Below, in pieces: positions 2,468 to 32,000 of a stretch of DNA of 32,000 nt (its first letter is position 1; the number at the start of each line of letters is the position of its first letter). This DNA is from Acaryochloris marina MBIC11017 (GTDB taxonomy: Bacteria > Cyanobacteriota > Cyanobacteriia > Thermosynechococcales > Thermosynechococcaceae): the NCBI RefSeq assembly GCF_000018105.1, contig NC_009931.1, forward strand, positions 2,962 to 34,961. The letters are read 5' to 3'. A program made the position numbers and the translations under genes. The notes beneath the pieces were generated by a model that ran no database searches, was not told the DNA's origin, and saw only the letters and a program-made list of their open reading frames with translations.

Positions 2468-3096
2468 ATTTATTGCTACTTGTTCCTATTCATTCCAAGT
2501 CACCGTGAGTCTGTCTGCTTATCCTCACCATTACAGTGGGGCTTTTGCTTTTGACCCAATCCTTCCCACCGCCTAACTTCTGGTTAGCACCTACTCTTAG
2601 CCAATCGACCTCCAAGAGAGATAGGCGGGGGTTACTTCGTTCCTAATAGCCATTGATTGAACTGTTAGAGTGATGCGCTCCACCGGGTTTATTGGAAGTG
2701 CTAACTGGTCGCTACTGGACACGCCAGCTCCGTATATCCTTGCCCTTTTGGGACTCCCAGCGTTATCAACCTAATTTCGCTGGTTAATGATTACGGTGGG
2801 TTAACCACATCTTCGCTTTCGCTACTCATAAGTTCTTGCTCGAAGGGGTTCAGAGCTAGGCTCCCTGTTACCTCCTTTTTTCCCCGCTTCAGGCGTTGAT
2901 GGCTAGTCGCGAACCTGGGGGAAATGCTGTCACCGCTGCACCTGCGGGATAGGACTAGAGCGGTCTAGGATACTGACTCTCACCTATATGGCTATTAAGT
3001 TGTCAAGGTACAGTTGGGATATTTTCCCCTTCTTTACGCTTGCGGCTAATCCCCTCAAACCCTATTCAGGTCTAGTTTCTAGCCAACGAATCGCAC

Positions 3097-5226
3097 CCAG
3101 TAGATCATCACCCCCCGGCCGCCATAGCGAACGTGCCATTCCGTCATCAAATTCTGGTCCCAAGATTCAAAGTGCCGAGAATCAGACGCACAAGCCGTGG
3201 TGGCTTCCCCCCAGATATGAGAAAGGCGAATCCGGAAAATCGCATTGGCCACATCCGTAATGGCACAGCTGAGGGCAATCTTGCTTAAAAACTTGCGTCG
3301 GACATAATGCAATTCAAAGTATCCTGCATCGGCTTCTGAATGAGCGATGCGCTTAATTCCTAAATTGGTGCCCAGTCCGTAAATACACAACAGTAGGCGC
3401 TTTCGCAGGGACTGGGGGCTCAATATTTCACGACTAGCCGCACTCTTGAAATGCTGGGTGAAATCAATCCGAAAGTCCGCTTCTTTGAGGACGTCCAATA
3501 AATGCGTTAGGGACCACCGGTGGTTGATCTCTTCCTTGAGTTTTTGAATGTTCATGGGTTCCGGTTGTGCCTCAAGCGGGGACACCTTAATTCGTCCTCC
3601 TCGCTTACTCAAGATCTCAACTTTGGAATTGTGAGGCATTCCCTGATTCAGTAGGGTCAAAGCGTTTTCCATATCAGTCTGGATTTGAGTGATGAAGGTC
3701 TCCACCTCTAGGGGCTGTTGTAGATCCTGGTAATACTCCTCTCGCCGCTCGTCAAAGTCTTGGGGTAAATCCAGGTCGGGATTTCGATAGCGATTGGCAC
3801 CGGCGACCCAAATTTCCTTACACCGTAGTTTCTCTCGCAAGGCCCTGAGGACGCACATCTCATAGGCGATGCGATCTACTTTGTCTGGCTGGTCTTCATC
3901 CTGACCCAATACCGTCTCTTGCCAGTCTGCACTGACGACCCCTTCGATGGGAACGTCGTCTGCTGAGGCATAAGGTTTTCGGGGGGTGTCCACATAGGCT
4001 TTGAGTAAATCCACAGCCTGCAGGATGGGCTGGTATTGCTTGTTATTGCACCGAAAGTCAATCACTTCCAGTACCGCAGGAAGCATTTGCCGATAATGAT
4101 GACCGTAGGAAGAACGGATCCTCGAGTGTAGAAGTTGTCGGTAAGTCTGACCGCCATCATTGTAGGAGTCAACAAATGCTTCCAGAGTTTGCTCACTGGC
4201 AACGGGGTAGATAACATCTCTGACCAAGCCATCTGGTGTGGCTAGGGCTGCGGTGGCCACCTGATAAAACAGTTGGGTGTGAGAGTCCGTTTTTTTGACT
4301 TTAGCGATCACCTCTGACGTCACTTTATTCTTGCTGCGTGTATCAATGCGATGGACGATCTGAATCAGCAAATCCATGATGTTGTCGATGATCTCTTGGC
4401 ATCGCTGCCAGCAAAAACTCGCGAGTAAGGTGAGTCGGATGACTTTGGGGTGATGCCTCAACTCTGATAATGTTTCCGTTTCCACTCGGAGCCGATAACA
4501 CTCCAGAACTCGTGGGGTCAGATGAGAAAACAAGGTATCTGGCAAAGCCACTTGGCGGAGTCGTTGGAGTTTGATGATTTCTGAAAGCAGGCTATTGAGA
4601 CCGACTGGTCCTGGGTCTTTTTTCAACGCACTTAGGGGAGGATCTGGGATCTCTTTACCTGGGGTCACCTTGGGTTCTTGGATCAATTCATCAAGCTCAG
4701 TTTGAGTTTGCTTGGACAACTGCTGGAGAGTTGAGGAAAAAAGCTGATTCTCAAATAGGCGTTGAGCAGACCGAATTAAACGCTCAATTCTAGCAGGAGT
4801 GGGAGGTTCAATCTGAAGGGTACGCAGTTGAGCATAGACCTTCAATTTCAGATGATGATAATCCTGCTCTTGACTCAAGACGGTATCGACTAACCAAGTG
4901 CGTAGTTGGTTTTGGTCCGCCACAGTGGCTTGTCGAAACCCGGTGAATTTACGAATCTGGGCCCGGTGATAATAGCTATTTCTCCCATGCCAGTCATAGC
5001 TTTTGAACAGCTCGGGCAGTAGTGCTAACTGGTCTGCAACGAAGGTCAAGGCCATATGAGGTATCTCATACTTCTGTTCAGGAAAGCGTCCTTCATATCG
5101 GAAGAATTTAAGCAACAGGACAAATCCTAAGCAGTTTGCTCCTTGACGTTTGGCCAACAAATGCTCTTCGTCAGGCTGGATAGACCAATGCTCAAGCAGC
5201 TCTTCTGGATGCCATTTACGTTTCAT
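3097..5226 (-). CDS. tnpA: Tn3-family transposase TnpA, exon 1 (DUF4158-type N-terminus and central region)
   Basis: ORF 3079-5226 begins MKRKWHPEELLEHWSIQPDEEHLLAKRQGANCLGFVLLLKFFRYEGRFPE, a typical Tn3 TnpA N-terminus. The coding sense ends at ...WHVRYGGRGVMIYW. The last 6 codons of the tracked ORF (VRFVG*) are read-through into the intron. Confidence 0.9.
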
Positions 5227-5415: not shown

Positions 5416-5543
5416 ATATTCCGCAATGATCTAAGTCGGCTGAAAATAGCTTCTAACACTTGATGCAGTAAGCCTTTTGTGGATTGAGGTATGGTACTGC
5501 TAAAACTCAAACTCAATCACGCTCACTCTGGAGGCTCATTGTT

Positions 5544-7205
5544 ATGTCTATGCGCCCGACAGACTTGTTGGACATCCCCAGTGAAACCATTGAAGTAGCT
5601 AGGGCTGCCTTTCCTGATGGCAATCTGTATATGCAACTACGTGATGAACTTGGCATTATCTATCACGATCACGATTTTGCTGATCTGTTTCCGAAGAAAG
5701 GACAACCAGCTCTATCCCCCTGGCAGCTTGTGCTAGTTTGCATCATGCAATTTCTTGAGAATCTTTCAGACCGTCAAGCGGCTGATGCCGTTCGAGCCCG
5801 GATAGATTGGAAATATGCCCTGAGCCTACCGCTGAGAGACTCTGGATTTAATTATTCTGTTTTGAGTGAATTTCGCAAGCGTCTGATCGCGGGTGACAAG
5901 GAACAACAGCTATTTGATAGCTTCCTTGAGCACCTTCAAGCAAAAGGGTTCCTTAAAGAACACCATCAACAACGAACGGATGCGACCCATATCCTAGCGT
6001 CGATCCGAACCCTCAATCGGTTGGAGTTATTTGGTGAAACCTTTCGGGCTGCTCTCAATAGTTTGGTTGTCGCAGATCCACAGTGGTTAAGCGAACACAT
6101 GCACGATGACTGGTTTGATCGCTATGGTCGACGAATAGAGAATTATCGCTTGCCCAAACCCGATAGCGAACGCAAAGCTTTGGGCAGTACTATCGGTCAA
6201 GATGGTTTGACACTGCTTGACGCCATATATGCCCCTAGTTCACCACCGTGGTTAAAGCATCTACCTGCAGTGGAAACTCTGCGACAAGTCTGGCTCCAGC
6301 GATTCTACCCGCCCAATGCAGACGGCACAGTCGAATGGCGAAAAGTGAAGGATATGCCCCCTTCTGATTCATCCATTCATTCTCCTTACGATGTCGAAGC
6401 CCGCTATAGCAATAAAAGAAGTATGGATTGGGTGGGCTATAAAGTTCATTTAACAGAAGTGTGTGATCCTGAAAGTCCACGTCTCATCACTCATGTGCAC
6501 ACCACCAGTGCAACGGTTCCAGATGATCAAGTTGTTGAACCCATTCACCTGGCTCTGGCTAAAAAACAGTTGTTGCCTAAAGAGCATTTGTTAGATGGGG
6601 GTTACCTCTCGGCAGAGCATTTGGTGAATAGCAAAGCAGAATATGACATGGATGTTATTGGTCCAGTGCGTCAAAATCATAGTTGGCAAGCAAAGGCAGG
6701 AAACGGATTTGATTCGAGCTTCTTCCTCATCAGTTGGGACCAACAGAAGGTTGTCTGTCCTCAAGGCCACTTCAGTACGAAATGGTTGCCTGGAAAGGAT
6801 ATTCACGGAAAGGATGTCATTCAAGCAAGGTTCCAGGGGACCACTTGCCGAAGTTGTCCAGTGCGATCTCAATGTACGAAATCAAAGACCCAGCCAAGAG
6901 AGTTGACGTTCCGTCCCCGTGAGTTACATCAAGCCCTTAATGAACGACGTCAGGTACAACGAACTACTGAGTTCAAGGAAAAATATAGCCTGCGGGCTGG
7001 TGTTGAGAGTACCCATTCACAGGGAATACGGCGATTTGGCATGCGCCAATCAAGGTATATCGGGTTAGCGAAGAGCCATCTACAGAATGTTTTCTGTGCC
7101 ATTGCTCTCAATTTTGTCCGCTTAGACGCTTGGTTTAATGATGTTCCACTAGCAAAAACTCGTGTATCTCTTTTCAAGAGGATACTTCAGCCATTACCAG
7201 CGTGA
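5544..7205 (+). CDS. IS1182/IS5-like DDE transposase
   Basis: ATG at 5544 is preceded by GGAGG (5530-5534). The N-terminal region LSPWQLVLVCIMQFLENLSDRQAADAVRARIDWKYALSL resembles the InsH/DUF772-type domain. A C-terminal Cys-rich tail (CPQG...CRSCPVRSQC) is typical of IS1182-family transposases. The tracked ORF start at 5484 is a TTG and is less likely. Confidence 0.85.
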   Translation: MSMRPTDLLDIPSETIEVARAAFPDGNLYMQLRDELGIIYHDHDFADLFPKKGQPALSPWQLVLVCIMQFLENLSDRQAADAVRARIDWKYALSLPLRDSGFNYSVLSEFRKRLIAGDKEQQLFDSFLEHLQAKGFLKEHHQQRTDATHILASIRTLNRLELFGETFRAALNSLVVADPQWLSEHMHDDWFDRYGRRIENYRLPKPDSERKALGSTIGQDGLTLLDAIYAPSSPPWLKHLPAVETLRQVWLQRFYPPNADGTVEWRKVKDMPPSDSSIHSPYDVEARYSNKRSMDWVGYKVHLTEVCDPESPRLITHVHTTSATVPDDQVVEPIHLALAKKQLLPKEHLLDGGYLSAEHLVNSKAEYDMDVIGPVRQNHSWQAKAGNGFDSSFFLISWDQQKVVCPQGHFSTKWLPGKDIHGKDVIQARFQGTTCRSCPVRSQCTKSKTQPRELTFRPRELHQALNERRQVQRTTEFKEKYSLRAGVESTHSQGIRRFGMRQSRYIGLAKSHLQNVFCAIALNFVRLDAWFNDVPLAKTRVSLFKRILQPLPA

Positions 7206-7215
7206 CTTCTTGGAA

Positions 7216-7231
7216 TTCGCCAACAGTGTCA
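7216..7231. repeat. IS right terminal inverted repeat
   Basis: TTCGCCAACAGTGTCA is the exact reverse complement of 5400-5415. It lies 10 nt after the transposase stop codon (7203-7205). Confidence 0.8.
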
Positions 7232-7689
7232 ACCCTTCAATTACCCCTTTTAAGAAGTATCACGTTGGCCCACAGGTTGGTGAAAGTGATGCAGCCGTAG
7301 AATTGTTCAGCGACGAAACCCGCGAAGCTGACGATAGAGCGCTATTGCTCAAAGTTCGAGACATGGTGCGCGGTGCGGCTGATATCGCCAAGTTCACCCA
7401 AATTGTTGAGCAGATGCGAGATGCCACCGAGCGGAAGATTGAGGGTAACCCGGTCACTGCCGTGGAGGTATTAGGCGATAAGCTCAACGTTAATCAGGAA
7501 GAGCGCTCTGGAATTCTCACCCATCTGATCCAGGGTGGCGACCTGACAGCTTACGGCATGATGAACGCTGTCACCAGAACATCCCAAGATGTTGAGAGCT
7601 ACGACCGAGCCACGGAGTTAGAAGCGATGGGATCTCAGGTTCTGAGTCTTCCCAAGGCTACCTGGCGAGAGATTGCGGTAGCTCGGTAG
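7232..7689 (+). pseudogene. 5'-truncated remnant of a conserved plasmid/phage-type gene, further disrupted by the IS
   Basis: The frame is open from the IS boundary to 7689 (...GDLTAYGMMNAVTRTSQDVESYDRATELEAMGSQVL...). Deleting the IS plus one ACCC copy extends the frame only to a TAG at 5356-5358, with no in-frame ATG or GTG (only a TTG at 5374). The family is not securely recognised. A weak memory links it to the C-termini of DUF932-type ICE/plasmid proteins. Confidence 0.5.
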
Positions 7690-7751
7690 TTCTGTCCTCA
7701 GCCCTGGCTATCTGCTGGGGCTGAAGCCGATCAGATTCAATACCCTATTAT

Positions 7752-9277: not shown

Positions 9278-9303
9278 GCACCCTGGCTTCCGGGCTGGGG
9301 TGC
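9278..9303 (+). repeat. GC-rich stem-loop Ha (family member, terminator/leader-like)
   Basis: GCACCCTGGC-ttccgg-GCTGGGGTGC forms a 10-bp stem including tandem U.G/G.U pairs. It starts 15 nt after the DUF3768 stop and is followed by CCTTCTTGGAGAGTGATT, the same leader type as after H1, but with no ORF. Confidence 0.6.
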
Positions 9304-9511
9304 CCTTCTTGGAGAGTGATTAAAACCGGGGGATATGTTGATATACCGTCTTTAGAACGACATTCATCTAGCAAAGATTGAGTTGATTGGAGGGAATTCC
9401 AAAACCTTTGCTATAGCAGTAGATCACTTACCTAAGCAATCTCGCTTAGATGCATGTGTTGGAAAGCCGGAAGCCCCACTCTACATAATTTCCCCCGACA
9501 TTATTCACTTT

Positions 9512-10624
9512 CTACACAAACATAAATACCGAATTAGTCAAGCTTAGGCTCTTAGTATTGGCAATGAAAGCAATTACTTCATCAGCGCCAGGCGTATTAA
9601 GAAATAGGAGGTGGCCTGATGAATAGGATTGGAGGCGATAGTCTCCACTGCTCCCTGACAATTGAATTTGATCCCCTTGGACACTCTGAAAGTCATAGAT
9701 ATAGGCATAATTAGCTGTGCCATAGGTGTTGTCGATGCCATCGTTATAGAAAACTGCTGACGCATCTCCTAAGACAAACATATCTGCATTCTGTCCACCC
9801 ACAAGCACATCTACCTGGGAAGCTGAATTGGGTGAATTTGTATCAACGCCTATCAATGAATCATTGCCGGCACCACCCCAAAGGGTGTCATTATCAAGTC
9901 CGCCATACAGCTGATCGGCACCAGCATCCCCATAGAGCCTATCTTGTCCAGCTTCTCCATAGAGCATGTCGTTGCCAAATTGTCCCCGCAGGATATCATT
10001 TCCGCCACGACCAAAAATGTTGTCATTGCTGTCTGTACCGATGAGTTGGTCGTTGCCAGGGGTCCCCACTAGCGGTGCTTCAACGGGTGGTGTCAGTGGG
10101 GGATTGACTGGGGCAGGCGGGGTGTTCGGATTGGAGGGGTTACCAGCTGTAGTATTGCCATCGGTTTGAGCAACATAGGTGCCTGTGACACCCCCTGCGC
10201 CAAATACTTGAGTCCAGTAGTGGGAGTAACGCTGATTGCCAGTATCGTTTTCAAGCAAATCATACCCAATTCCCATGTGTGTGAAATTAGGATTTAGAAT
10301 ATTGGCCCGATGCCCGGAGCTGCCCATCCAGGCATTGAGAACAGCCTCTGGTGTTGCCTGCCCTGCAGCAATGTTCTCCCCCCAAGTGGACCAGCCAGTG
10401 TATCCTGCTGCTTCAATACGATCTCCAGCGCTGGTTCCAGTTTGTGGATCTCTATGGGCAAAGAAGTCACCCGTTGCCATGCGAGCAGAATGCTGATCAG
10501 CAGCTTGATCAAGATTCTGGCTGAGTTGTAGGGGTCTCAGCCCGCGAGATTCGCGTTCCTGGTTTACAAGATCTAAGAGTTGTTGATCAAAGCGATCCTG
10601 TTCAAGGATTGTCATGTTGTTCAT
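9512..10624 (-). CDS. Secreted-type protein: N-terminal CAP/SCP (YkwD-like) domain plus RTX calcium-binding repeats
   Basis: The CAP domain region reads LVNQERESRGLRPLQLSQNLDQAADQHSARMA...GENIAAG...AWMGSSGHRANILNPNFTHMGIGY. It is followed by tandem GGxGxD-type nonapeptides (GNDQLIGTDSNDNIFGRGGNDILRGQFGNDMLYGEAGQDRLYGDAGADQLYGGLDNDTLWGGAGNDSLIG). Confidence 0.9.
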   Translation of the reverse strand: MNNMTILEQDRFDQQLLDLVNQERESRGLRPLQLSQNLDQAADQHSARMATGDFFAHRDPQTGTSAGDRIEAAGYTGWSTWGENIAAGQATPEAVLNAWMGSSGHRANILNPNFTHMGIGYDLLENDTGNQRYSHYWTQVFGAGGVTGTYVAQTDGNTTAGNPSNPNTPPAPVNPPLTPPVEAPLVGTPGNDQLIGTDSNDNIFGRGGNDILRGQFGNDMLYGEAGQDRLYGDAGADQLYGGLDNDTLWGGAGNDSLIGVDTNSPNSASQVDVLVGGQNADMFVLGDASAVFYNDGIDNTYGTANYAYIYDFQSVQGDQIQLSGSSGDYRLQSYSSGHLLFLNTPGADEVIAFIANTKSLSLTNSVFMFV

Positions 10625-10776
10625 TGTTCCTCATTTCATCGCGAGTAATGTTATCGCTCACCAGTGAAGATATAGTGAATTTCGACATTCAATAGATTGG
10701 CCTCACTGCAACTCAGTCCAAGTCTTTCCCACCCAATAATTTAGACAATATCCCTGTGCTTTCTCCCACACCAATC

Positions 10777-10803
10777 AGCCCCCTGGTTCACCACTGGGGG
10801 GCT
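10777..10803 (+). repeat. GC-rich stem-loop H1 (family member, in the leader of small ORF U1)
   Basis: AGCCCCCTGGT-tcacc-ACTGGGGGGCT forms an 11-bp stem with tandem U.G/G.U pairs. It is followed by TCCTTCTGAATCACTGGAGGTAATCCC and the ATG at 10831, with 27 nt intervening. Confidence 0.65.
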
Positions 10804-10830
10804 TCCTTCTGAATCACTGGAGGTAATCCC

Positions 10831-10980
10831 ATGAAAATCCAGGCTGCCAAAATCGAAGTCTGGAATGGTTGCTCCTTCCAGTGGATTGATTTCCAGATGG
10901 CTCAAACCCAGAACAGTCTTGGGGCAGTCCAGGCCATCCTAGATCGGACCAAGCTAAGGTTTGCTGATTCCAAAGCTTGA
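10831..10980 (+). CDS. Small protein U1 (49 aa), paralog family with U2/U3
   Basis: My translation is MKIQAAKIEVWNGCSFQWIDFQMAQTQNSLGAVQAILDRTKLRFADSKA. A GGAGG RBS is present. It is too short for the ORF track and is recognised through its paralogs at 11349 and 12022. Confidence 0.55.
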   Translation: MKIQAAKIEVWNGCSFQWIDFQMAQTQNSLGAVQAILDRTKLRFADSKA

Positions 10981-11175
10981 TGCCAGCTTTTCTTTTCCCT
11001 GATTGGTTGAGAACTTGATTAATATGTACCCAGATTTACAACTTGATTCGGTCTAGAGATGTAGTCTAATACCCTAACAATAAGTGGCATTATCCAGTAT
11101 TTAAGCCTCAATACATCATTTTTAAGTTTCTTCTCTCACCGATTGGGTTTGTCACTCGATCTTCGGCTACTCCCT

Positions 11176-11213
11176 AAAACCCCGGCATCTCCTGTCTGGG
11201 GTTTTCCCTTTTT
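11176..11213 (+). terminator. Intrinsic terminator-like stem-loop Hb (family member) with U-tract
   Basis: AAAACCCCGG-catctcctgt-CTGGGGTTTT forms a 10-bp stem and is followed by CCCTTTTT. The next bases, AGCCACTGGCGGAATATATCC, resemble the H1 leader (CACTGGAGGTAATCCC), but no start codon follows. Confidence 0.6.
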
Positions 11214-11292
11214 AGCCACTGGCGGAATATATCCAAGCCTTGCCACCCAATGACAGCCCCCTCCCCGAACCTTTCTCTTTCATTTCTTATTT

Positions 11293-11321
11293 AGCCCCTT
11301 AGCATCCCCCGCTAAGGGGCT
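11293..11321 (+). repeat. GC-rich stem-loop H2 (family member, in the leader of small ORF U2)
   Basis: AGCCCCTTAGC-atccccc-GCTAAGGGGCT forms a perfect 11-bp stem. The ATG at 11349 follows after 27 nt. The 3' arm is also complementary to 11249-11260. Confidence 0.65.
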
Positions 11322-11348
11322 GTCATTAGATTTAGCGGAGGTGACTCT

Positions 11349-11504
11349 ATGAAAATGTACATTGCCAACATCCTGGTCTGGAATGGCCGAGAGTTTATGA
11401 TGCTCCCCTTCCAGCAAGCTCAAACTCAGGAAAATCTTGGGGTAGTCATCAGGGAGTACGTTGCTGCGATGGGGTTGCGGCTGGTGTATTGGAGTAAGGT
11501 TTGA
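11349..11504 (+). CDS. Small protein U2 (51 aa), paralog of U1/U3
   Basis: MKMYIANILVWNGREFMMLPFQQAQTQENLGVVIREYVAAMGLRLVYWSKV, with a GGAGG RBS. Third-position-only differences to U3 across the AQTQ codons argue for coding constraint. Confidence 0.6.
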   Translation: MKMYIANILVWNGREFMMLPFQQAQTQENLGVVIREYVAAMGLRLVYWSKV

Positions 11505-11546
11505 GGCTGAGGTTGAGAAACAGCGGATATTCCAGGAGAATTCTGT

Positions 11547-11888
11547 ATGGATGTTTTAATCCTAGAAATACTCTCCATTCATCTCAAGGTTGGCGATGTC
11601 TTAGAGTTAGCTTTGATTGACAAGAAGTTCGCAACGGAGCAAATGATCGAAATCCCTATTGCTTGCAAGCTGGTAAAAAAGGATGCAATCGTTGTTCACT
11701 TCCACCACCATGAATTGGACTTAGACTTCAATACGGTAGACATACACTCCAAAAATGACCATCGGTATCTGACCATTCATAGTCTGGAGATTGTTGATCC
11801 TGAGAAAGGATATCTAGTCATTAATGAAGAGGATGGAGCTGTTCGCTATCAAGTGGCATGGAAGAAAATATCGACTACTTACGAATAG
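11547..11888 (+). CDS. Hypothetical protein (113 aa)
   Basis: ORF with an AGGAGA RBS 7 nt upstream, lying between U2 and U3. No family was recognised. Confidence 0.6.
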   Translation: MDVLILEILSIHLKVGDVLELALIDKKFATEQMIEIPIACKLVKKDAIVVHFHHHELDLDFNTVDIHSKNDHRYLTIHSLEIVDPEKGYLVINEEDGAVRYQVAWKKISTTYE

Positions 11889-11960
11889 AGTGAGCATCAT
11901 ATCCTTTCCCACTCCTCCTCCCCCAAACCTTCTCTTTTATTTCTTATCTTTTTTAATGCA

Positions 11961-11987
11961 GCCCCCTGGTATCCCCCACCAAGGGGC
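11961..11987 (+). repeat. GC-rich stem-loop H3 (family member; also terminator-like)
   Basis: GCCCCCTGGT-atccccc-ACCAAGGGGC has 9 of 10 positions paired and the same loop as H2. It is followed by CTTTTTC. The relic start codon ATA at 12016 lies 28 nt after the stem. Confidence 0.65.
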
Positions 11988-12021
11988 CTTTTTCATGATG
12001 CCCAGAGGCAATCCCATAAAG

Positions 12022-12171
12022 ATGTACGTCGCCAAAATCGAAGTCTGGAATGGCCGCTCTTTCCAGTTGATTGATTTCCAGCAAGCCCAGACCCAGGAAA
12101 GCCTTAGGTTAGTCATCAGGGAGTGTGTTGCTGCGATGGGGTTGAAGTTAATCTATTGGTATGAGTCTTAG
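12022..12171 (+). CDS. Small protein U3 (49 aa), paralog of U1/U2
   Basis: MYVAKIEVWNGRSFQLIDFQQAQTQESLRLVIRECVAAMGLKLIYWYES. The codon corresponding to the U1/U2 ATG is ATA (12016-12018), so the next in-frame ATG at 12022 is used. This is the same frame as tracked ORF 11824-12171. Confidence 0.6.
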   Translation: MYVAKIEVWNGRSFQLIDFQQAQTQESLRLVIRECVAAMGLKLIYWYES

Positions 12172-12213
12172 ATTCAATTATTAGATAAGACATTGGATAT
12201 CTTATCCAAAACG

Positions 12214-12717
12214 ATGAAACTCATCATTCTAGATAAGGACGGAACTCTCACTACCCCCAAAAGTGGCAAGAATTTTGTGCAAAAACCAGAGGACCAAATT
12301 TTACTTCCTGGTGTTTTGGATGCCGTGAGATGGCACACCTTACAAGGGCATATGCTTATCATCGCCTCAAATCAGGGAGGTGTATCAGCAGGGTATAAAA
12401 CGATTGCGGAAGTGATCTTAGAAATGAAATATTGCTTACATCTACTCCGTGGGATACAGTCAGCCTATTTCTGTCCTGATTTTGAGGGCAATCAATGCTG
12501 GCATGTAGAACGACAGAGCAGCTCTCAAGTAGAGGTGCTGAGGTTCAGGGGCAGAATGCGAAAACCTGGAGATGGGATGATTCAGCAAGCGCTTTTAGAC
12601 CATCCTTGTGTGTCTGAAATACTATTCATTGGAGATCGTCCAGAAGATGAGCAAGCGGCCCAGGCTGCTGGAGTCGATTTCCAAGACGCAGAGAGTTGGA
12701 GGCAACCCAGAGAATAA
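12214..12717 (+). CDS. HAD-superfamily (IIIA-like) phosphatase, GmhB / polynucleotide 3'-phosphatase-like
   Basis: MKLIILDKDGTL (DxDGT motif I), IIASNQGG (motif II), RKPGDGM and FIGDRPEDEQAAQAAG (motifs III/IV). The start is set at the ATG directly before the DKDGTL motif. The tracked start at 12193 is a TTG. Confidence 0.8.
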   Translation: MKLIILDKDGTLTTPKSGKNFVQKPEDQILLPGVLDAVRWHTLQGHMLIIASNQGGVSAGYKTIAEVILEMKYCLHLLRGIQSAYFCPDFEGNQCWHVERQSSSQVEVLRFRGRMRKPGDGMIQQALLDHPCVSEILFIGDRPEDEQAAQAAGVDFQDAESWRQPRE

Positions 12718-12805
12718 GACAAACTTCGACATGAGCGGATGCGATCACTGGCGGTTCATTTGCAATCGCATCCACCTACAAGCTAGCTCAAATCATTTCC
12801 CTTAC

Positions 12806-12839
12806 TTCACACCTATTAATCCATTTCACACCTATTAAT
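12806..12839 (+). repeat. Tandem direct repeat, 2 x 15 bp (TTCACACCTATTAAT), 19-bp period
   Basis: 12806-12820 and 12825-12839 are identical. The repeat lies between the HAD gene stop and stem-loop H4. Confidence 0.7.
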
Positions 12840-12840
12840 T

Positions 12841-12862
12841 CCCCTGGCTGATTCGCTGGGGG
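12841..12862 (+). repeat. GC-rich stem-loop H4 (family member, in the leader of the 177-aa gene)
   Basis: CCCCTGGC-tgattc-GCTGGGGG forms an 8-bp stem with the same tandem U.G/G.U pairs as Ha and H1. It is followed by the leader ...ATCTGGAGAAAATCCT and the ATG at 12887, with 24 nt intervening. Confidence 0.6.
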
Positions 12863-12886
12863 GTTCGCATATCTGGAGAAAATCCT

Positions 12887-13420
12887 ATGACTGTTTCCGT
12901 TCCTCCCCCCACACTTACCTCAAATTCTCAGATCCCTTCCCATCAGACCTATGTGCGTCCCCTTGGATTTGGTGAGAGTCCTTCTGGCTTAGCTATATTC
13001 TGCAACCGAGCCAATACGAACACTTGGTATACCCTTAGTCAAGACTCTCAGCCCGTGGAACTCCCCTATCCTGCGCTCACGGGCTATCTGACCAGCATTG
13101 AATTTATCAAAGGGGAGTATAAAAGGAAGCCCACCTGCAAACTCCGATTCAGGATGATTGCCCATCGTCCCTGTACTCTAGAGGCGGGTTCCGAGTCCAC
13201 GTTCACGAAGGGGTTCTTGAGTGCGATCGCAAGCTTGTCCCCGGAGCAACTCCGCAGTCCGATCACCATCGAAGCGATTCCTGCTGATGAAGAAACTGTG
13301 CTTTTTTGTTCGGTATGGTCGGGAGGTCAGAAGGTCAGAACCCAATGGGATGATCAGACCAACTGGCGAGAGGTCGCTAGACGAGCCAAGGATAATGTGG
13401 CTCAACTTCAGAGTAGCTGA
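12887..13420 (+). CDS. Hypothetical protein (177 aa)
   Basis: ORF with a GGAGAA RBS and the H4 leader upstream. No family was recognised. Confidence 0.65.
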   Translation: MTVSVPPPTLTSNSQIPSHQTYVRPLGFGESPSGLAIFCNRANTNTWYTLSQDSQPVELPYPALTGYLTSIEFIKGEYKRKPTCKLRFRMIAHRPCTLEAGSESTFTKGFLSAIASLSPEQLRSPITIEAIPADEETVLFCSVWSGGQKVRTQWDDQTNWREVARRAKDNVAQLQSS

Positions 13421-20706: not shown

Positions 20707-21024
20707 TGCTTTGCATCTGCACACTAATCATTAGCTCTGCCTAGTCTCCCTCCCCCCAACGATCAGAAACCCTAATCCTCCAATCCTTGTAGCACCAGAG
20801 CATCCACGCTACCCTAGTGACTAGGCAGTGGGACTCCCCCACCCAGAGTTTTTTCTCCAAATCCACCTCACCACGACTCCCCATCGAGCCTGATTTTTGC
20901 TGAGGGTATATTCTCACGCGAGGTCAAAACAACCACTTGCGTTTTCTCAATATCCACATGCCCGACTCGCTTACACATGCCAGTCGTGCCCTATCCACTA
21001 TTCATTATTCAAAGGACAACACTC

Positions 21025-21705
21025 ATGAAATTGATTACTTCTATCAAACTCCAGCAAGCCGATCACACCGAGGTCATCGACAGTGCTGCTACCCAAGTGG
21101 GCCTAGCTGCAAACAAAGCCTTCCTGTTCGTCGTCCGCAAGGAAATCCAAGGCTGGAAAAACTTCACTGCCCTCTGCTCCTGGTGCCTGTCCAAAGTGAG
21201 CCAGAAGCATGGACCCATCTTTGAGGAGGTCAAAGAGCGTGCTGTAGCTGTCTACCGCAAGGGCTGTCAGCAAGAGACAGCCTTTGTCCAAGCGCTTATC
21301 AAGTCCCAGATCACGGATCGGCTTGATGCTCACTGGAAGCTTCACGATCAGGCTATCGATTGGTTCAAGGACCAGACCCAGGCATTCCTGGCCGACAGCC
21401 CGGTCGAGGATACTTCTGAGGTCGAGGTTGAGGATCTATCTCCTGACAGTTCGGAAGACCTGGAGGAGATTGCACCTGTGGATGAGGGTGAGGAGCCTTC
21501 TATGACTATCTTGGATGAGGCTCCGGTCCCGGTCCTTGGTCCGCCTGTTGATCCTGACCCACTGGATGATGAGTTGACCGTTCCTCAAGACCCGACTCCT
21601 GTTGTGGCTAGTGGTGGAGGAAAGCGTCGGACTAGGAACAAGTCCAAGAGAACACCGCTTGGTGCCATGATGCTTAGCCAAGCCAAAACAGGAAAACCTA
21701 GTTAG
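21025..21705 (+). CDS. Hypothetical protein with an acidic, Pro-rich, probably disordered C-terminal half
   Basis: ATG at 21025 with AAGGA upstream. The tail reads ...SPVEDTSEVEVEDLSPDSSEDLEEIAPVDEGEEPS...GGGKRRTRNKSKR. It lies directly upstream of parA. Confidence 0.65.
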   Translation: MKLITSIKLQQADHTEVIDSAATQVGLAANKAFLFVVRKEIQGWKNFTALCSWCLSKVSQKHGPIFEEVKERAVAVYRKGCQQETAFVQALIKSQITDRLDAHWKLHDQAIDWFKDQTQAFLADSPVEDTSEVEVEDLSPDSSEDLEEIAPVDEGEEPSMTILDEAPVPVLGPPVDPDPLDDELTVPQDPTPVVASGGGKRRTRNKSKRTPLGAMMLSQAKTGKPS

Positions 21706-21879
21706 ATATCTGGCGTACCTGGCTCCTGGGGAGACCTGGGAGCTGGTTAGTTGGTGCAGACTAAATTTCTACAAATATTTTTAGTTTTATTAAGGGATTA
21801 ATAGAAAAGAGGATGGTGTAATTTGCTTTGACCTAATCTATCATTGACAGGAATGTACAATGACTCTTCTACAAAAGAT

Positions 21880-29690: not shown

Positions 29691-32000
29691 TCAACAATTC
29701 GTAGCGCGAAGTTTTGATGCGGTCTCGACCATATTGATAAGTGAAGGCTTCACTTCCGACCATTGGCGAGTCTTGAGACCACAATCCGGGTTGACCCAGA
29801 GGTGCTCACGCGGTAACACAGCTTCCGCTTTTGACATGAGATTACTCATTTCATCGGTGGGGGGTACCCGTGGTGAGTGGATGTCATAGACACCTGGACC
29901 GATCTCATTTGGATACTTAAAGTCTACAAAGGCATCGAGCAGCTCCATATTTGAGCGCGAGGTCTCAATGGTGATGACGTCAGCATCCATAGCGGCGATA
30001 GAGTCGATGATATCGTTGAACTCGGAGTAACACATGTGGGTGTGGATTTGGGTTTCATCCTCCACACCGCAAGCACTGAGGTGAAATGCCTTCACTGCCC
30101 AGTTGAGATAGTTATCCCACTCGCTCCTGCGTAACGGCAGACCTTCACGGAAGGCCGGTTCATCGATCTGGATGGCGGCAATCCCGGCAGCTTCGAGGTC
30201 CACCACTTCATCACGAATGGCCAGGGCAATCTGATGTGTGGTGACGGAGCGCGGCTGGTCGTCACGCACGAAGCTCCACTGGAGGATCGTAACCGGGCCG
30301 GTTAGCATCCCCTTCATCGGGCGATCCGTCAACGATTGAGCATACTCAGACCAGTAGACAGTCATGGGCTTGGATCGGCTGACATCGCCAAAAATGATCG
30401 GTGGTTTCACGTAGCGAGTGCCAAAGCTCTGCACCCAACCCGTGCTGGTAAAGGTAAAGCCTTCGAGATTTTCTCCAAAGTATTCCACCATGTCATTGCG
30501 CTCGAACTCGCCGTGAACAGGCATATCAATCCCGATCTCGTCTTGGAACGCAACGCATTTAGCAATTTCTTCCTTCATGAACTGGTCGTAGTCCGCATCG
30601 CTTAGCTTCCCTTTTTTCCACTGGGCGCGTGCTAGGCGCACCTCCTTGGTCTGAGGGAATGAGCCGATGGTCGTGGTCGGGAATTCCGGCAAACGGAGTT
30701 TGGCTCGCTGCTTGGTCTGGCGTTCAACGAAGGCTGAGGCGCGATCGAAATCGCTGGGCTTAACCCCAGCAAGGCGCTTTTTCACAGCATCATTGTGGAT
30801 ACGCTTGCTAGACTTTCGAGAAGCAACGGCGGCACGGTTGGTTTCAAGCATTTCTTCACTTCCGACTTCATCGAGAAGCTGCCGGAGTTCGGTGACTTCC
30901 GTGAGTTTCTCGTCGGCAAAGGCCAGCCAACTTTTCAGCTCATCATCCAGCTTTTGTTCGTTTTGCAGGGTGACGGGCGAATGTAGCAATGAACAGCTAG
31001 GTGCGACCCAAAGCCGATCCGCGCCAACAACAACCTTGGCCTTCTTCAAAAATTCTAGTGAGGCATCGTAATCATTTTTCCAGACATTGCGGCCTTCGAC
31101 GATTCCTACGGAGAGAATTTTGTTAGTCGGGAAGGTATCCAGAACAGAGTCAATGTCTTCTGAACCTCGCACGAAATCAAAATGCAAGGCGTCAACCGGC
31201 AACGCAAGGTAGTCATCAAGATTATCTCTCACGCCACCAAAATATGTGGTGACGAGCAACTTTGCTGAGCCTTGGACCTTAGAGAGACGATCGTATGCCA
31301 CCTTCAAAGCTTCGCGCTGTAAATTGCTCAGGTCGGTGGAAATAATCGGTTCATCGAGCTGTATCCATTCCGCCCCTTCGGCGGCAAGCTTGTCGAGGAT
31401 CTCTACATAGACGGAGACAAGATTGTCGAGGAGAGTCAACGGATCGAAGTCCGGGTTGTTAGAACCCTGTACCTTGCCTAGGGAGAGATAAGTCACGGGA
31501 CCGACGAGCACTGGCTTCGCGTTAATCCCCAGTTCCTTAGCCTCCGCGAGTTCATCAAAGACTTTGGTGCTGCTAAGGGAGAATGTTGTGTCCCCCCGAA
31601 ACTCAGGCACGATGTAGTGGTAATTCGTATCGAACCACTTTGTCATCTCGCTAGCAAAAGTGGAAACCTTGCTCGTCTGGCAGTCCTTCTCATCCTCAAC
31701 CCAAGAAGTGCCGCCTTCCGTACCACGAGCGATGGTGAAAGCGGTGTTGATGTCTGTCTGCCCGCCTTGCCACTGAAAGCGCGGTGGCACATTGCCAAGC
31801 AGGCAGCTCATGTCGAGCACTTGGTCATAAAAGGAGAAGTCATTGACCGGGATGAGATCTAGTCCGGCGGCCTGTTGCTTCTTCCAGTTGGTTTCGCGCA
31901 AAGTCTTGCCCGTGACGAGCAGCTCGGAAAGAGGAAGGTCGCCTTTCCAATAGGCTTCCGTAGCCTTTTTTAATTCACGCTTGGCTCCGATGCGCGGGTA
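29691..32000 (-). CDS. metE: Cobalamin-independent methionine synthase MetE (5' end beyond the window)
   Basis: The frame is open to position 32000. The reverse translation of the last bases is YPRIGAKRELKKATEAYWKGDLPLSELLVTGKTLRETNWKKQQ..., the MetE N-terminal signature. Zinc-ligand regions are visible (HMCYSEFNDI, NPDCGLKTR). About 10 codons are missing. Confidence 0.95.
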   Translation of the reverse strand, partial: YPRIGAKRELKKATEAYWKGDLPLSELLVTGKTLRETNWKKQQAAGLDLIPVNDFSFYDQVLDMSCLLGNVPPRFQWQGGQTDINTAFTIARGTEGGTSWVEDEKDCQTSKVSTFASEMTKWFDTNYHYIVPEFRGDTTFSLSSTKVFDELAEAKELGINAKPVLVGPVTYLSLGKVQGSNNPDFDPLTLLDNLVSVYVEILDKLAAEGAEWIQLDEPIISTDLSNLQREALKVAYDRLSKVQGSAKLLVTTYFGGVRDNLDDYLALPVDALHFDFVRGSEDIDSVLDTFPTNKILSVGIVEGRNVWKNDYDASLEFLKKAKVVVGADRLWVAPSCSLLHSPVTLQNEQKLDDELKSWLAFADEKLTEVTELRQLLDEVGSEEMLETNRAAVASRKSSKRIHNDAVKKRLAGVKPSDFDRASAFVERQTKQRAKLRLPEFPTTTIGSFPQTKEVRLARAQWKKGKLSDADYDQFMKEEIAKCVAFQDEIGIDMPVHGEFERNDMVEYFGENLEGFTFTSTGWVQSFGTRYVKPPIIFGDVSRSKPMTVYWSEYAQSLTDRPMKGMLTGPVTILQWSFVRDDQPRSVTTHQIALAIRDEVVDLEAAGIAAIQIDEPAFREGLPLRRSEWDNYLNWAVKAFHLSACGVEDETQIHTHMCYSEFNDIIDSIAAMDADVITIETSRSNMELLDAFVDFKYPNEIGPGVYDIHSPRVPPTDEMSNLMSKAEAVLPREHLWVNPDCGLKTRQWSEVKPSLINMVETASKLRATNC

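Follow-up and report, generated by a model that had tools for sequence, protein, structure and literature searches.

The window, a stretch of 32,000 nucleotides, belongs to a megaplasmid of Acaryochloris marina and is about 99% identical to pREC2. It contains a small gene array of about 4-5 kb, found on Acaryochloris plasmids, in which the genes for DUF932 and DUF3768 proteins, several small genes and a 177-aa gene are co-directional, with the gene for an HTH regulator ahead of them on the minus strand. This divergent gene, of the Cro/C1 type, is conserved upstream of every array. Given the presumed polarity of transfer, the array probably occupies the oriT-proximal (leading) side of Acaryochloris MOBF megaplasmids. 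Its intergenic DNA carries, on the coding strand, a family of hairpins of 21-31 nt with stems of 8-13 bp. The hairpins and the features associated with them all lie on the plus strand of the window.

Hairpins, leaders and genes of the array

The first hairpin, H0 (class A, 7698..7724; TCAGCCCTGGC/tatct/GCTGGGGCTGA), scores 27.5 bits against the covariance model of the family and folds at -20.8 kcal/mol. It is located 8 nt past the stop codon of a truncated DUF932 ORF (7162-7689), and a convergent ParE gene comes next; orthologous copies after DUF932 are present at the related loci L005, L006, L008 and L026. The original prediction had placed six related hairpins between 9278 and 12862, a set that is indeed non-random, and H0 adds a seventh member outside this range. 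The second hairpin, Ha (class B, 9278..9303; 32.7 bits), has an uninterrupted stem and lies 14 nt past the DUF3768 stop codon (9263). In the window the unit downstream of Ha has been lost, and a minus-strand CAP/RTX gene stands in its place. At the orthologous positions of L005-L009, L011, L018 and L026, the hairpin is followed by TGnTACAAT, a promoter-like box that is invariant in the other plasmids, so that the hairpin there precedes the probable promoter of the next gene.

Three paralogous small-gene cassettes follow, each with a class C hairpin. In cassette 1, hairpin H1 (10777..10803; 40.2 bits, -19.3 kcal/mol) opens a leader (10804..10830) that consists of the pyrimidine tail UCCUUCUG, the Shine-Dalgarno (SD) sequence GGAGG and the ATG, with a weak predicted helix between tail and SD; the small gene itself (10831..10980) encodes 49 aa and is a paralogue of the 51-aa family. 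It is followed by Hb (class T, 11176..11213), an element like a canonical intrinsic terminator, in which the stem (11176-11205) precedes CCCTTTTT, with 5 T in the 8-nt tail, and which has orthologues at L005-L010. Hb had been thought to be followed by a relic of the cassette leader. Instead, the sequence after it (ATATTGGCGGGATATCTCC...) is a conserved spacer that is found behind the equivalent terminator in other plasmids; it spans 11214..11291, comprises the near-palindrome GGAATATATCC, the element TTGCCACCCAAT and a polypyrimidine tract, and holds no conserved ORF. Cassette 2 begins with H2 (11292..11322), a stem of 12 bp with the loop AUCCCCC (-21.8 kcal/mol, z -6), and its small gene (11349..11504) encodes a 51-aa protein that is 100% identical to an A. 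marina protein. In cassette 3, hairpin H3 (11961..11987) carries a C.A mismatch on the plus strand that divides the stem into 5 + 4 bp (-15 kcal/mol). The same mismatch occurs at L010 and L026, and its conservation on the sense strand of H3-type copies counts against the reading preferred below. Small gene 3 (12022..12171) starts with an ATG at 12022; in the alignment, the start codon of its paralogues falls on the ATA at 12016. Genes of this 49-51 aa family are found in Acaryochloris only.

The last hairpin, H4 (class D, 12840..12863; 30.1 bits), belongs to the leader of the 177-aa gene (12887..13420), which has homologues on Nostocales plasmids; the remainder of the leader (12864..12886) reads UUCGCAUAUCUGGAGAAAAUCCU. 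Directly upstream of H4, TTCACACCTATTAA occurs twice as a direct repeat with a period of 19 nt (12806..12838), a candidate promoter or operator that is kept in 8 of 9 loci.

The stems of Ha, H1, Hb, H2 and H4 thus proved to be uninterrupted on the plus strand where they had been placed, that of H2 reaching 12 bp if it is taken as 11292-11322. H3 had been listed as equally perfect and is uninterrupted on the minus strand only. The distances of 27, 27, 28 and 24 nt from the stems of H1, H2, H3 and H4 to the start codon are correct, the third being measured to the ATA; this codon had been read as a decayed start, and a usable ATG follows two codons later. A leader of common design had also been proposed. 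Those of H1-H3 are alike by paralogy, and the likeness of H4 amounts to a pyrimidine tail and CTGGAG(A/G), the Shine-Dalgarno region. The resemblance among H1, H2 and H3 themselves results from tandem duplication of the whole paralogous cassette, including about 110 nt of upstream sequence.

A related, strand-specific hairpin family

The motif CCCTGG-N4-12-CTGGGG, the core of the hairpins, occurs four times in the window, always on the plus strand, where 0.03 occurrences are expected from shuffled sequence. The covariance model yields 43 matches of at least 21.9 bits in the window, L001, L005-L011 and L018, and 9 further matches of 20.6-33.5 bits in L022-L026; every one of them lies inside an array and on the gene-sense strand. 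Above 15 bits, no match was obtained in L012-L014 and L021 (185 kb of pREC2) or in the remainder of the window and loci; in all, the plasmid DNA scanned beyond the arrays without a match exceeds 300 kb. Rfam searches gave no match in the hairpin region (best E = 1.4), the only hit above threshold in the window being a group II intron at 643-719. The family is therefore real and strand-specific, it is not a generic repeat, and, as had been supposed, it does not correspond to an element described in Rfam.

At least 11 related loci display the same hairpin design at fixed syntenic positions, namely after DUF932, after DUF3768, before the small gene and before the 177-aa gene, and canonical U-tract terminators of the Hb type likewise recur among them. 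Hairpins are missing at L019, L020 and L022, where the genes abut or overlap. The homologous loci of Nostoc and Calothrix have no match to the family, and their homologues of the 177-aa gene are accompanied by unrelated terminator-like hairpins at the equivalent place.

Base pairing is preserved across this set. All copies form stable GC-rich RNA hairpins (-13 to -22 kcal/mol; -14.6 to -21.8 kcal/mol for the hairpins of the window), and 90-91% of the aligned stem cells are paired, compared with 42-62% in slid controls. Covariation was anticipated for a larger alignment and is found there, with double changes at 6 of 11 stem pairs. Within the window, the compensatory pairs that distinguish H2 from H3 (C-G vs U-A, A-U vs G-C) and the tandem U.G/G.U pair of Ha, H1 and H4 are as first reported. 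In the diverged copies at L024 and L026, U-A, C-G, G-C or A-U stand in place of the U.G/G.U pairs, which indicates that pairing is conserved rather than a particular sequence. Two C-G pairs are invariant among 34 distinct copies and the U.G pair is nearly so. The loops range from 3 to 11 nt and are not conserved in sequence. Stem cells include 68 G.U and only 6 A.C combinations, so the structure is better formed on the sense strand; in agreement with this, minus-strand RNA folds more weakly in 5 of 7 copies. An alternative pairing proposed for H2, between 12-nt complements at 11249-11260 and 11316-11327, does exist. The mutually exclusive structure that it would create is peculiar to the window copy, is not its minimum-energy fold and is not conserved.

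Probable transcript punctuation by positional class

The hairpins differ in the neighbours to which they are linked. Classes A and B (H0 and Ha) are situated 8-14 nt after the stop codons of DUF932 and DUF3768. Classes C and D, which are situated 23-28 nt ahead of a start codon, remain linked to the gene that follows them, whereas the one that precedes them changes between HAD, ankyrin, the CAP gene and a gene on the minus strand. The proposed link to start codons consequently holds for the H1-H3 and H4 types; Ha and H0 follow stop codons and Hb would terminate the preceding gene. The single family that had been envisaged is thus a related set on one strand, and not one functional class. The number of U in the 8-nt tail also differs, with 4-6 in class T, 3-6 in class C and 3-4 in classes B and D. 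Class A (2, 3, 3 and 5) mostly has no U tract and class D offers only UUUCG, observations that were both counted against the preferred reading. In Synechococcus, intrinsic terminators have been defined by at least 4 U in 8 nt together with a hairpin below -10 kcal/mol, and U-poor hairpins are not established as terminators (PMC12642595). By the U count, class T and most of class C qualify, classes B and D are borderline and class A mostly fails.

The most likely interpretation, with a probability of roughly 0.55, is that the elements are RNA stem-loops on the sense transcript, comprising terminators or attenuators and leader hairpins, that punctuate the array according to positional class. As judged from its stem and U tract, Hb is predicted to be a canonical intrinsic terminator of the preceding gene. 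Hairpins of classes A and B may create the 3' end of the preceding message or protect it, and class B would additionally insulate the promoter-like TGnTACAAT box that follows. Between the hairpins of classes C and D and the ATG there is no room for a promoter, so these hairpins would have to be transcribed within the 5' leader of that gene. With a strong stem and a partly U-rich tail, they could act as leaky terminators (attenuators), as 5' structures that protect the message and keep the SD region in a defined context, or as both. We thus infer action in RNA, through termination, attenuation or stabilisation depending on the class. If this interpretation is right, the family represents an ordinary kind of element in a version specific to this lineage.

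Alternative readings and known systems

The CCCUGG...CUGGGG core is common to four positions with non-homologous flanks. A generic terminator would not require so much sequence conservation, which may point to recognition by a common factor or to gene conversion. A shared RNA operator is accordingly a possible, though doubtful, alternative, in which a plasmid or host RNA-binding factor would recognise the CCCUGG/CUGGGG stem and co-regulate the units of the array, for example through regulated antitermination, translational control via the adjacent SD, or processing. The common core, the near-invariant pairs noted above and the confinement of the family to the array would suit such a factor. 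However, the tandem G.U pair becomes Watson-Crick in diverged copies, the loops are variable and the array proteins have no detected RNA-binding domain. As regards an SD-sequestering (thermometer-like) leader, RNAalifold places in classes C and D a helix of 4-6 bp between pyrimidine tail and SD directly beside the hairpin, but this helix is weak and not dominant in single-sequence folds, and pairing of a pyrimidine tail with a purine-rich SD is trivial.

A role in single-stranded DNA is unlikely. Here, folding would take place in the transferred strand while conjugation proceeds, and the hairpins could, for instance, prime synthesis of the complementary strand across establishment genes or be recognised for it. 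On the plus strand of pREC2, a MOBF-type nic-like sequence (an inverted repeat followed by GCGTATGGTGT GG), which presumably resembles the nic sites of F and R388, is found between the leading side and the mobF operon. The array is on the 5' side of mobF in 6 of 6 plasmids and divergently transcribed from it, which would make the hairpin-bearing sense strand the T-strand. Since the sense strand is probably the conjugative T-strand, strand asymmetry cannot separate RNA from single-stranded DNA. As DNA the hairpins still fold (-5 to -12 kcal/mol), but with about half the stability of RNA. Moreover, the U/T tracts of class T make sense in RNA only, the hairpins are positioned relative to stop and start codons, the arrays and mobF are 19-87 kb apart, IS elements and cargo genes intervening, and the polarity of transfer is presumed. 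Known ssi/Frpo signals are structures of 100-300 nt with promoter boxes (PMC11541004).

Double-stranded DNA operators are more improbable than this. Such inverted repeats would be bound by a dimeric repressor, e.g. the divergent HTH_3 protein, which would shut the array down once establishment is complete, in the manner of Reg576 on p576. Repressor-controlled establishment genes have a precedent (PMC6294495), the HTH gene accompanies every array, class B overlaps the -35 position of the TGnTACAAT box, and CCCCAG, complementary to CTGGGG, is present in the oriT-proximal iterons. A palindromic DNA operator was rejected on the arm spacing of 3-11 nt and on the transitions (T/C, G/A) that make the arms consistently asymmetric as DNA and account for the excess of G.U over A.C cells; in addition, the outer stem positions are not conserved but covary from class to class, and all copies share one orientation. 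Finally, a mobile or recombinogenic repeat (REP/MITE-like or attC-like) marking the boundaries of gene cassettes, originally raised as a boundary element moving with them, is very improbable: gene content between conserved units does vary among plasmids, and at L024 a hairpin-plus-leader module precedes a different short ORF, but inserted HAD phosphatase and ankyrin genes bring no hairpin of their own, more than 300 kb of sequence beyond the arrays holds no copy, neither an integron integrase nor a RAYT gene is nearby, and the three window copies are explained by tandem duplication.

Among known systems, Rho-independent terminators and attenuators resemble the family in their GC-rich stems of 8-13 bp, short loops and sense-strand, intergenic location, and the likeness extends to the full U tract of the Hb type and the C-type tails with 4-6 U in 8 nt. 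The family departs from intrinsic terminators in the poor U tracts of classes A, B and D, in the lasting association of classes C and D with the leader of the next gene, and in the one core sequence that the copies have in common. Hairpins that stabilise mRNA include those of the ompA 5' UTR and the T7 phi10 leader and REP-stabilised 3' ends. They share with the present elements a multi-gene transcript context and a strong stem-loop a short fixed distance before the ribosome-binding site or right after the stop codon; for the present hairpins, a position at the 5' end of a transcript is hypothetical. REP/BIME sequences are likewise short, imperfect GC-rich palindromes in intergenic DNA, but a dispersed REP/BIME or MITE repeat was rejected for a family confined, within the plasmid DNA covered, to an array of about 4-5 kb, in a single orientation, syntenic and without a RAYT gene. 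Integron attC sites are also structured and lie between small genes that share an orientation but vary in content, and strand-specific folding could arise in transferred single-stranded DNA. This candidate was rejected because the hairpins measure 21-31 nt instead of 57-141 nt, lack the R''/L''-L'/R' boxes (RYYYAAC...GTTRRRY) and extrahelical bases, and are tied to specific genes rather than to the 3' end of each cassette, in arrays without an integrase. Frpo/ssi elements (PMC11541004) share the leading side of conjugative plasmids and strand-specific hairpins. They were set aside in view of their far greater length, the absence of -35/-10 boxes from the hairpin stems and the orientation of the array, whose divergence from mobF makes the sense strand the presumed T-strand, the opposite of Frpo logic. 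On p576, the operators of Reg576 similarly provide a recurrent motif upstream of several establishment-type genes and involve a small divergent regulator gene (PMC6294495). The p576 motif, a dual heptamer, is recognised in duplex DNA (PMC6294495), whereas the recurrent motif here behaves as a base-paired single strand, and the better analogue of that operator is the pair of TTCACACCTATTAA direct repeats upstream of H4.

Sense-strand hairpins with a conserved helix

When both strands were scanned for stems with 9 or more pairs (G.U permitted) and the sequence itself was checked, all six hairpins of the original prediction were recovered: Ha (9278-9303), H1 (10777-10803), Hb (11176-11205), H2 (11293-11321), H3 (11961-11987) and H4 (12841-12862), all on the plus strand. 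The scan also added a seventh member that had been missed, H0 (7698-7724, plus strand; TCAGCCCTGGC/tatct/GCTGGGGCTGA). The description of the stems as perfect applies to Ha, H1, Hb, H2 and H4, which are uninterrupted on the plus strand, but not to H3, in which a C.A mismatch splits the plus-strand stem into 5 + 4 bp and only the minus strand is uninterrupted. The 12-nt complement proposed as an alternative partner of the H2 3' arm exists, but it is confined to the H2 copy and the alternative is not the MFE fold. RNA folding energies of the seven hairpins range from -14.6 to -21.8 kcal/mol, with five of them folding less strongly on the opposite strand, and the window contains four instances of the strict core CCCTGG-N4-12-CTGGGG, always on the plus strand, against 0.03 predicted by dinucleotide shuffles. 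The mismatch of the H3-type variant (loop AUCCCCC) is kept in the window (11961-11987) and in two comparison loci (L010 5945-5973; L026 3942-3977), and this variant also carries a compensatory C-G to G-C change at one outer pair; the C.A could be a tolerated or a protonated A+.C pair.

Covariation, which the original prediction had proposed as a check, bears out the pairing. In a MAFFT alignment of 25 copies, the 11-pair helix shows 91% standard pairs, versus 42-61% when the 3' partner is slid, and six pairs have changed on both sides; a second alignment, built from 39 model hits of which 34 are distinct, shows a matching pairing result. The non-Watson-Crick cells comprise 68 G.U versus 6 A.C, which marks the helix as sense-strand-specific. 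The tandem U.G/G.U gives way to U-A, C-G, G-C or A-U in the copies that have diverged furthest, so that the pairing, and not the wobble itself, is conserved, and the loops differ in both length and sequence. A symmetric operator in duplex DNA is disfavoured by the double-sided pair changes, the excess of G.U over A.C, the wobble replacement and the variable loops.

A covariance model of the family (R1) matched 43 copies in Acaryochloris arrays and nine in extra contigs, all on the sense strand. Above 15 bits it found none in a further 185 kb of pREC2 (the plasmid of Acaryochloris marina MBIC10699 to which the window is ~99% identical), in the other 27 kb of the window or in the locus flanks. 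The search suggested earlier thus places the copies exclusively in the arrays, as judged from the window, the plasmid loci and the 185 kb of pREC2. Nostoc and Calothrix loci encoding a homologue of the 177-aa array protein gave no model match, and unrelated terminator-like hairpins occupy the equivalent spot there. By simple count, strong GC-rich hairpins reach ~1.3/kb at 7.6-12.9 kb of the window, versus 0.45/kb in the rest of the window and 0.68/kb in the other 185 kb of pREC2. One GC-rich hairpin elsewhere in the window (CTGGCTCCTGGG/gaga/CCTGGGAGCTGG, 21719-21746), 14 nt past the stop of the ORF at 20977-21705, is not matched by the family model. The hairpins were unmatched in Rfam at gathering and permissive thresholds, and literature searches returned no account of them and no Acaryochloris TSS or 3'-end maps, in keeping with the earlier remark that this is not a described element. 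Identities as attC, Frpo or DNA operator, and as REP on the plasmid DNA searched, were ruled out on defining features; the family belongs to no REP, attC, Frpo or Rfam family. It is real and lineage-specific, its sense-strand stem-loops punctuating a single plasmid gene array.

Positional classes in the gene array

The hairpins sit within a co-directional run of small genes. Its order in the window is a truncated DUF932 gene, a ParE toxin/antitoxin pair (opposite strand), DUF3768, an inserted minus-strand CAP/RTX gene, three copies of a 49-51 aa gene (the small gene), a 113-aa gene, a PNK3P-type HAD phosphatase and the 177-aa gene, beyond which lie DUF4326, DUF488 and DUF5131 and, further on, ParA and a 1406-aa SNF2 helicase. 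Acaryochloris is noted for its many plasmids, and the comparison took in homologous loci at seven further plasmid sites (L005-L011), later joined by a second array on pREC3 (L018), the metagenomic/ENA contigs L024 and L026, and Acaryochloris sp. RU_4_1 (L022). Across these loci the hairpin design is repeated at matching syntenic positions, which define five classes. Class A (H0) lies 8-12 nt past the DUF932 stop, ahead of a convergent gene; class B (Ha) ~14 nt past the DUF3768 stop; class T (Hb; ACCCCGG...CCGGGGUUUU) ~30 nt past the stop of the gene preceding the small gene; class C (H1-H3) 26-28 nt before the small-gene ATG; and class D (H4) 23-24 nt (17-24 when folded automatically) ahead of the 177-aa gene's ATG. 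The distances of 27, 27, 28 and 24 nt originally reported between H1-H4 and their start codons were confirmed. Classes A and T accompany the upstream gene, and classes C and D stay with the downstream gene while the upstream neighbour varies (HAD phosphatase, ankyrin protein, minus-strand gene or CAP gene). No hairpin is found where genes abut or overlap (L019, L020 and L022).

Several sequence elements accompany these positions. In other plasmids, class B is followed by an invariant TGnTACAAT box 12-13 nt after the stem and by the SD and ATG of the next gene ~45 nt after it; this extended -10-like box lies at approximately L006 5510-5518, L011 5460-5470 and L018 4016-4024. In the window the unit is decayed (9304-9330) and the minus-strand CAP/RTX gene (9512-10624) stands in its place. 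Immediately upstream of H4 are two direct repeats of TTCACACCTATTAA (12806-12819 and 12825-12838; 19-nt period), kept in 8 of 9 loci, which look like a transcription-factor site or promoter element of the 177-aa gene. H1, H2 and H3 form parts of three tandem cassettes alignable over ~300 nt, from an upstream C/T-rich region through hairpin and leader into the coding sequence; they are paralogous, and cassette duplication partly explains the family.

The small-gene protein has 29 relatives, every one from Acaryochloris or unlabelled metagenomic contigs. Its 51-aa family (10831-10980, 11349-11504 and 12022-12171) has a predicted beta-beta-alpha-beta fold (pLDDT 94), whose weak best structural neighbours are T7 Gp2 (TM 0.70, E 0.18), RNAP epsilon/YkzG, the UDG inhibitor p56 and Dmd, all small phage or host-interaction proteins. 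In the metagenomic relative L024 (910-1008), a hydrophobic ORF of 33 codons follows a class C-type hairpin and leader, and the stop of this ORF overlaps the small-gene ATG (ATGA). Pfam, PHROGs and PDB sequence searches yielded no RNA-binding candidate among the array proteins. The window also contains mobile elements. An IS element (DDE_Tnp_1_6/DUF772 transposase; 5484-7205) lies directly upstream of the ORF at 7162-7689, whose match to DUF932-type proteins covers only their C-terminal third (phrog_1362 positions 255-386 of 391), so the DUF932 gene of this plasmid is disrupted. On the minus strand, a group II intron (643-2467; Rfam domain V/VI match 643-719, RT-maturase-HNH ORF 737-2467) adjoins a Tn3-family transposase ORF (3079-5226) truncated at 134 of 389 DDE-domain positions, and may interrupt that gene.

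Probable terminators and leader hairpins

The roles appear to be mixed, as far as sequence and position allow this to be judged, with some copies probably acting as terminators or 3'-end hairpins and others as leader hairpins. Class T copies satisfy the usual definition of an intrinsic terminator. In the other classes, the 8-nt tail contains 3-6 U (class C), 3-4 U (B and D) or 2-5 U (A). A study of Synechococcus required four or more U among 8 nt together with a hairpin energy below -10 kcal/mol, and found less read-through with more U in the tail (PMC12642595); on this scale the non-T classes would be weak to moderate terminators. The 23-28 nt between class C or D hairpins and the ATG are too short for a promoter, and the hairpin therefore lies within the leader of the downstream gene; a sigma-70 consensus scan performed at chance level and placed no class C or D promoters. 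The simplest reading is that these leader hairpins would serve as leaky terminators (attenuators) and/or protect the 5' end. RNAalifold also suggests a short helix between the pyrimidine tail and the SD, flush against the hairpin; this helix is weak, and it does not dominate when single sequences are folded. A polypyrimidine tract of 60-80 nt (CCCCCTCCCCCAAACCTTTCTCTTTCTTTTCTTATCTTTCTT...) with no predicted structure separates the Hb-type terminator from the class C hairpin (window 11258-11291 and 11907-11955; L005-L011 about 5860-5945); its frames and stops vary, and no conserved leader peptide or ORF was found in it.

If the hairpins are plain terminators, the finding amounts to routine annotation. 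Cyanobacteria are without Rho, and canonical terminators end only a minority of their transcription units (PMC12642595), which makes the family a convenient natural test set: compact, conserved, covarying hairpins with graded U tracts and known positions relative to genes could reveal which features decide whether a hairpin in cyanobacteria terminates, attenuates or stabilises.

Possible establishment module and presumed transfer polarity

In gene content the array resembles an establishment or anti-defence module, with DUF932, DUF3768, DUF4326, DUF5131, PAPS reductase, Dcm and MT-A70 methylases and SNF2 helicase among its genes. Plasmid-borne genes for a sigma-70-family factor, AbrB and HU lie a few kb upstream of arrays (L001 8269-9093; L010 1-199; L011 1-308), and pREC2 also encodes priA, dnaG, recA and several aminoacyl-tRNA synthetase genes. 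The MobF relaxase operon of pREC2 occupies 24.6-31.1 kb on the minus strand, and the gap beyond mobF contains, on the plus strand, an inverted repeat and then GCGTATGGTGT GG, an arrangement that resembles the F and R388 nic regions. This putative MOBF oriT (31352-31395; CATCATACGC/GCGTATGGTG, then TGT GGTATTTT) is followed at 31400-31610 by ~12 iterons nnTTG(C/T)CCC(C)AG with an 11-nt period. In each of the six plasmids compared, the hairpin array is found on the putative-nic side of mobF, with transcription running divergently from mobF. The family delimits a conserved array of genes, oriT-proximal in Acaryochloris MOBF megaplasmids.

In other MOBF plasmids the relaxase enters last (PMC11541004). 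If transfer polarity is the same here, the array falls within the leading half, with its sense strand being the one transferred, and the hairpins would then form in incoming single-stranded DNA too; their energies as DNA are -5 to -12 kcal/mol. The U tracts and codon-linked positions favour a role in RNA, and on sequence evidence one at the DNA level is less likely. A core common to four positions with non-homologous flanks leaves room for a common recognising factor. It is unlikely that the hairpins are a dedicated recognition element of a plasmid establishment programme, whether read in the T-strand or in mRNA. On such a reading, the shared CCCUGG/CUGGGG core and the confinement to arrays would reflect recognition and not mere stability. 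Read in mRNA, the hairpins would allow a plasmid factor to co-regulate the units of the array; read in the T-strand, they would, for example, prime complementary-strand synthesis across each establishment gene, with the sense strand apparently the one transferred here, unlike in classical leading regions.
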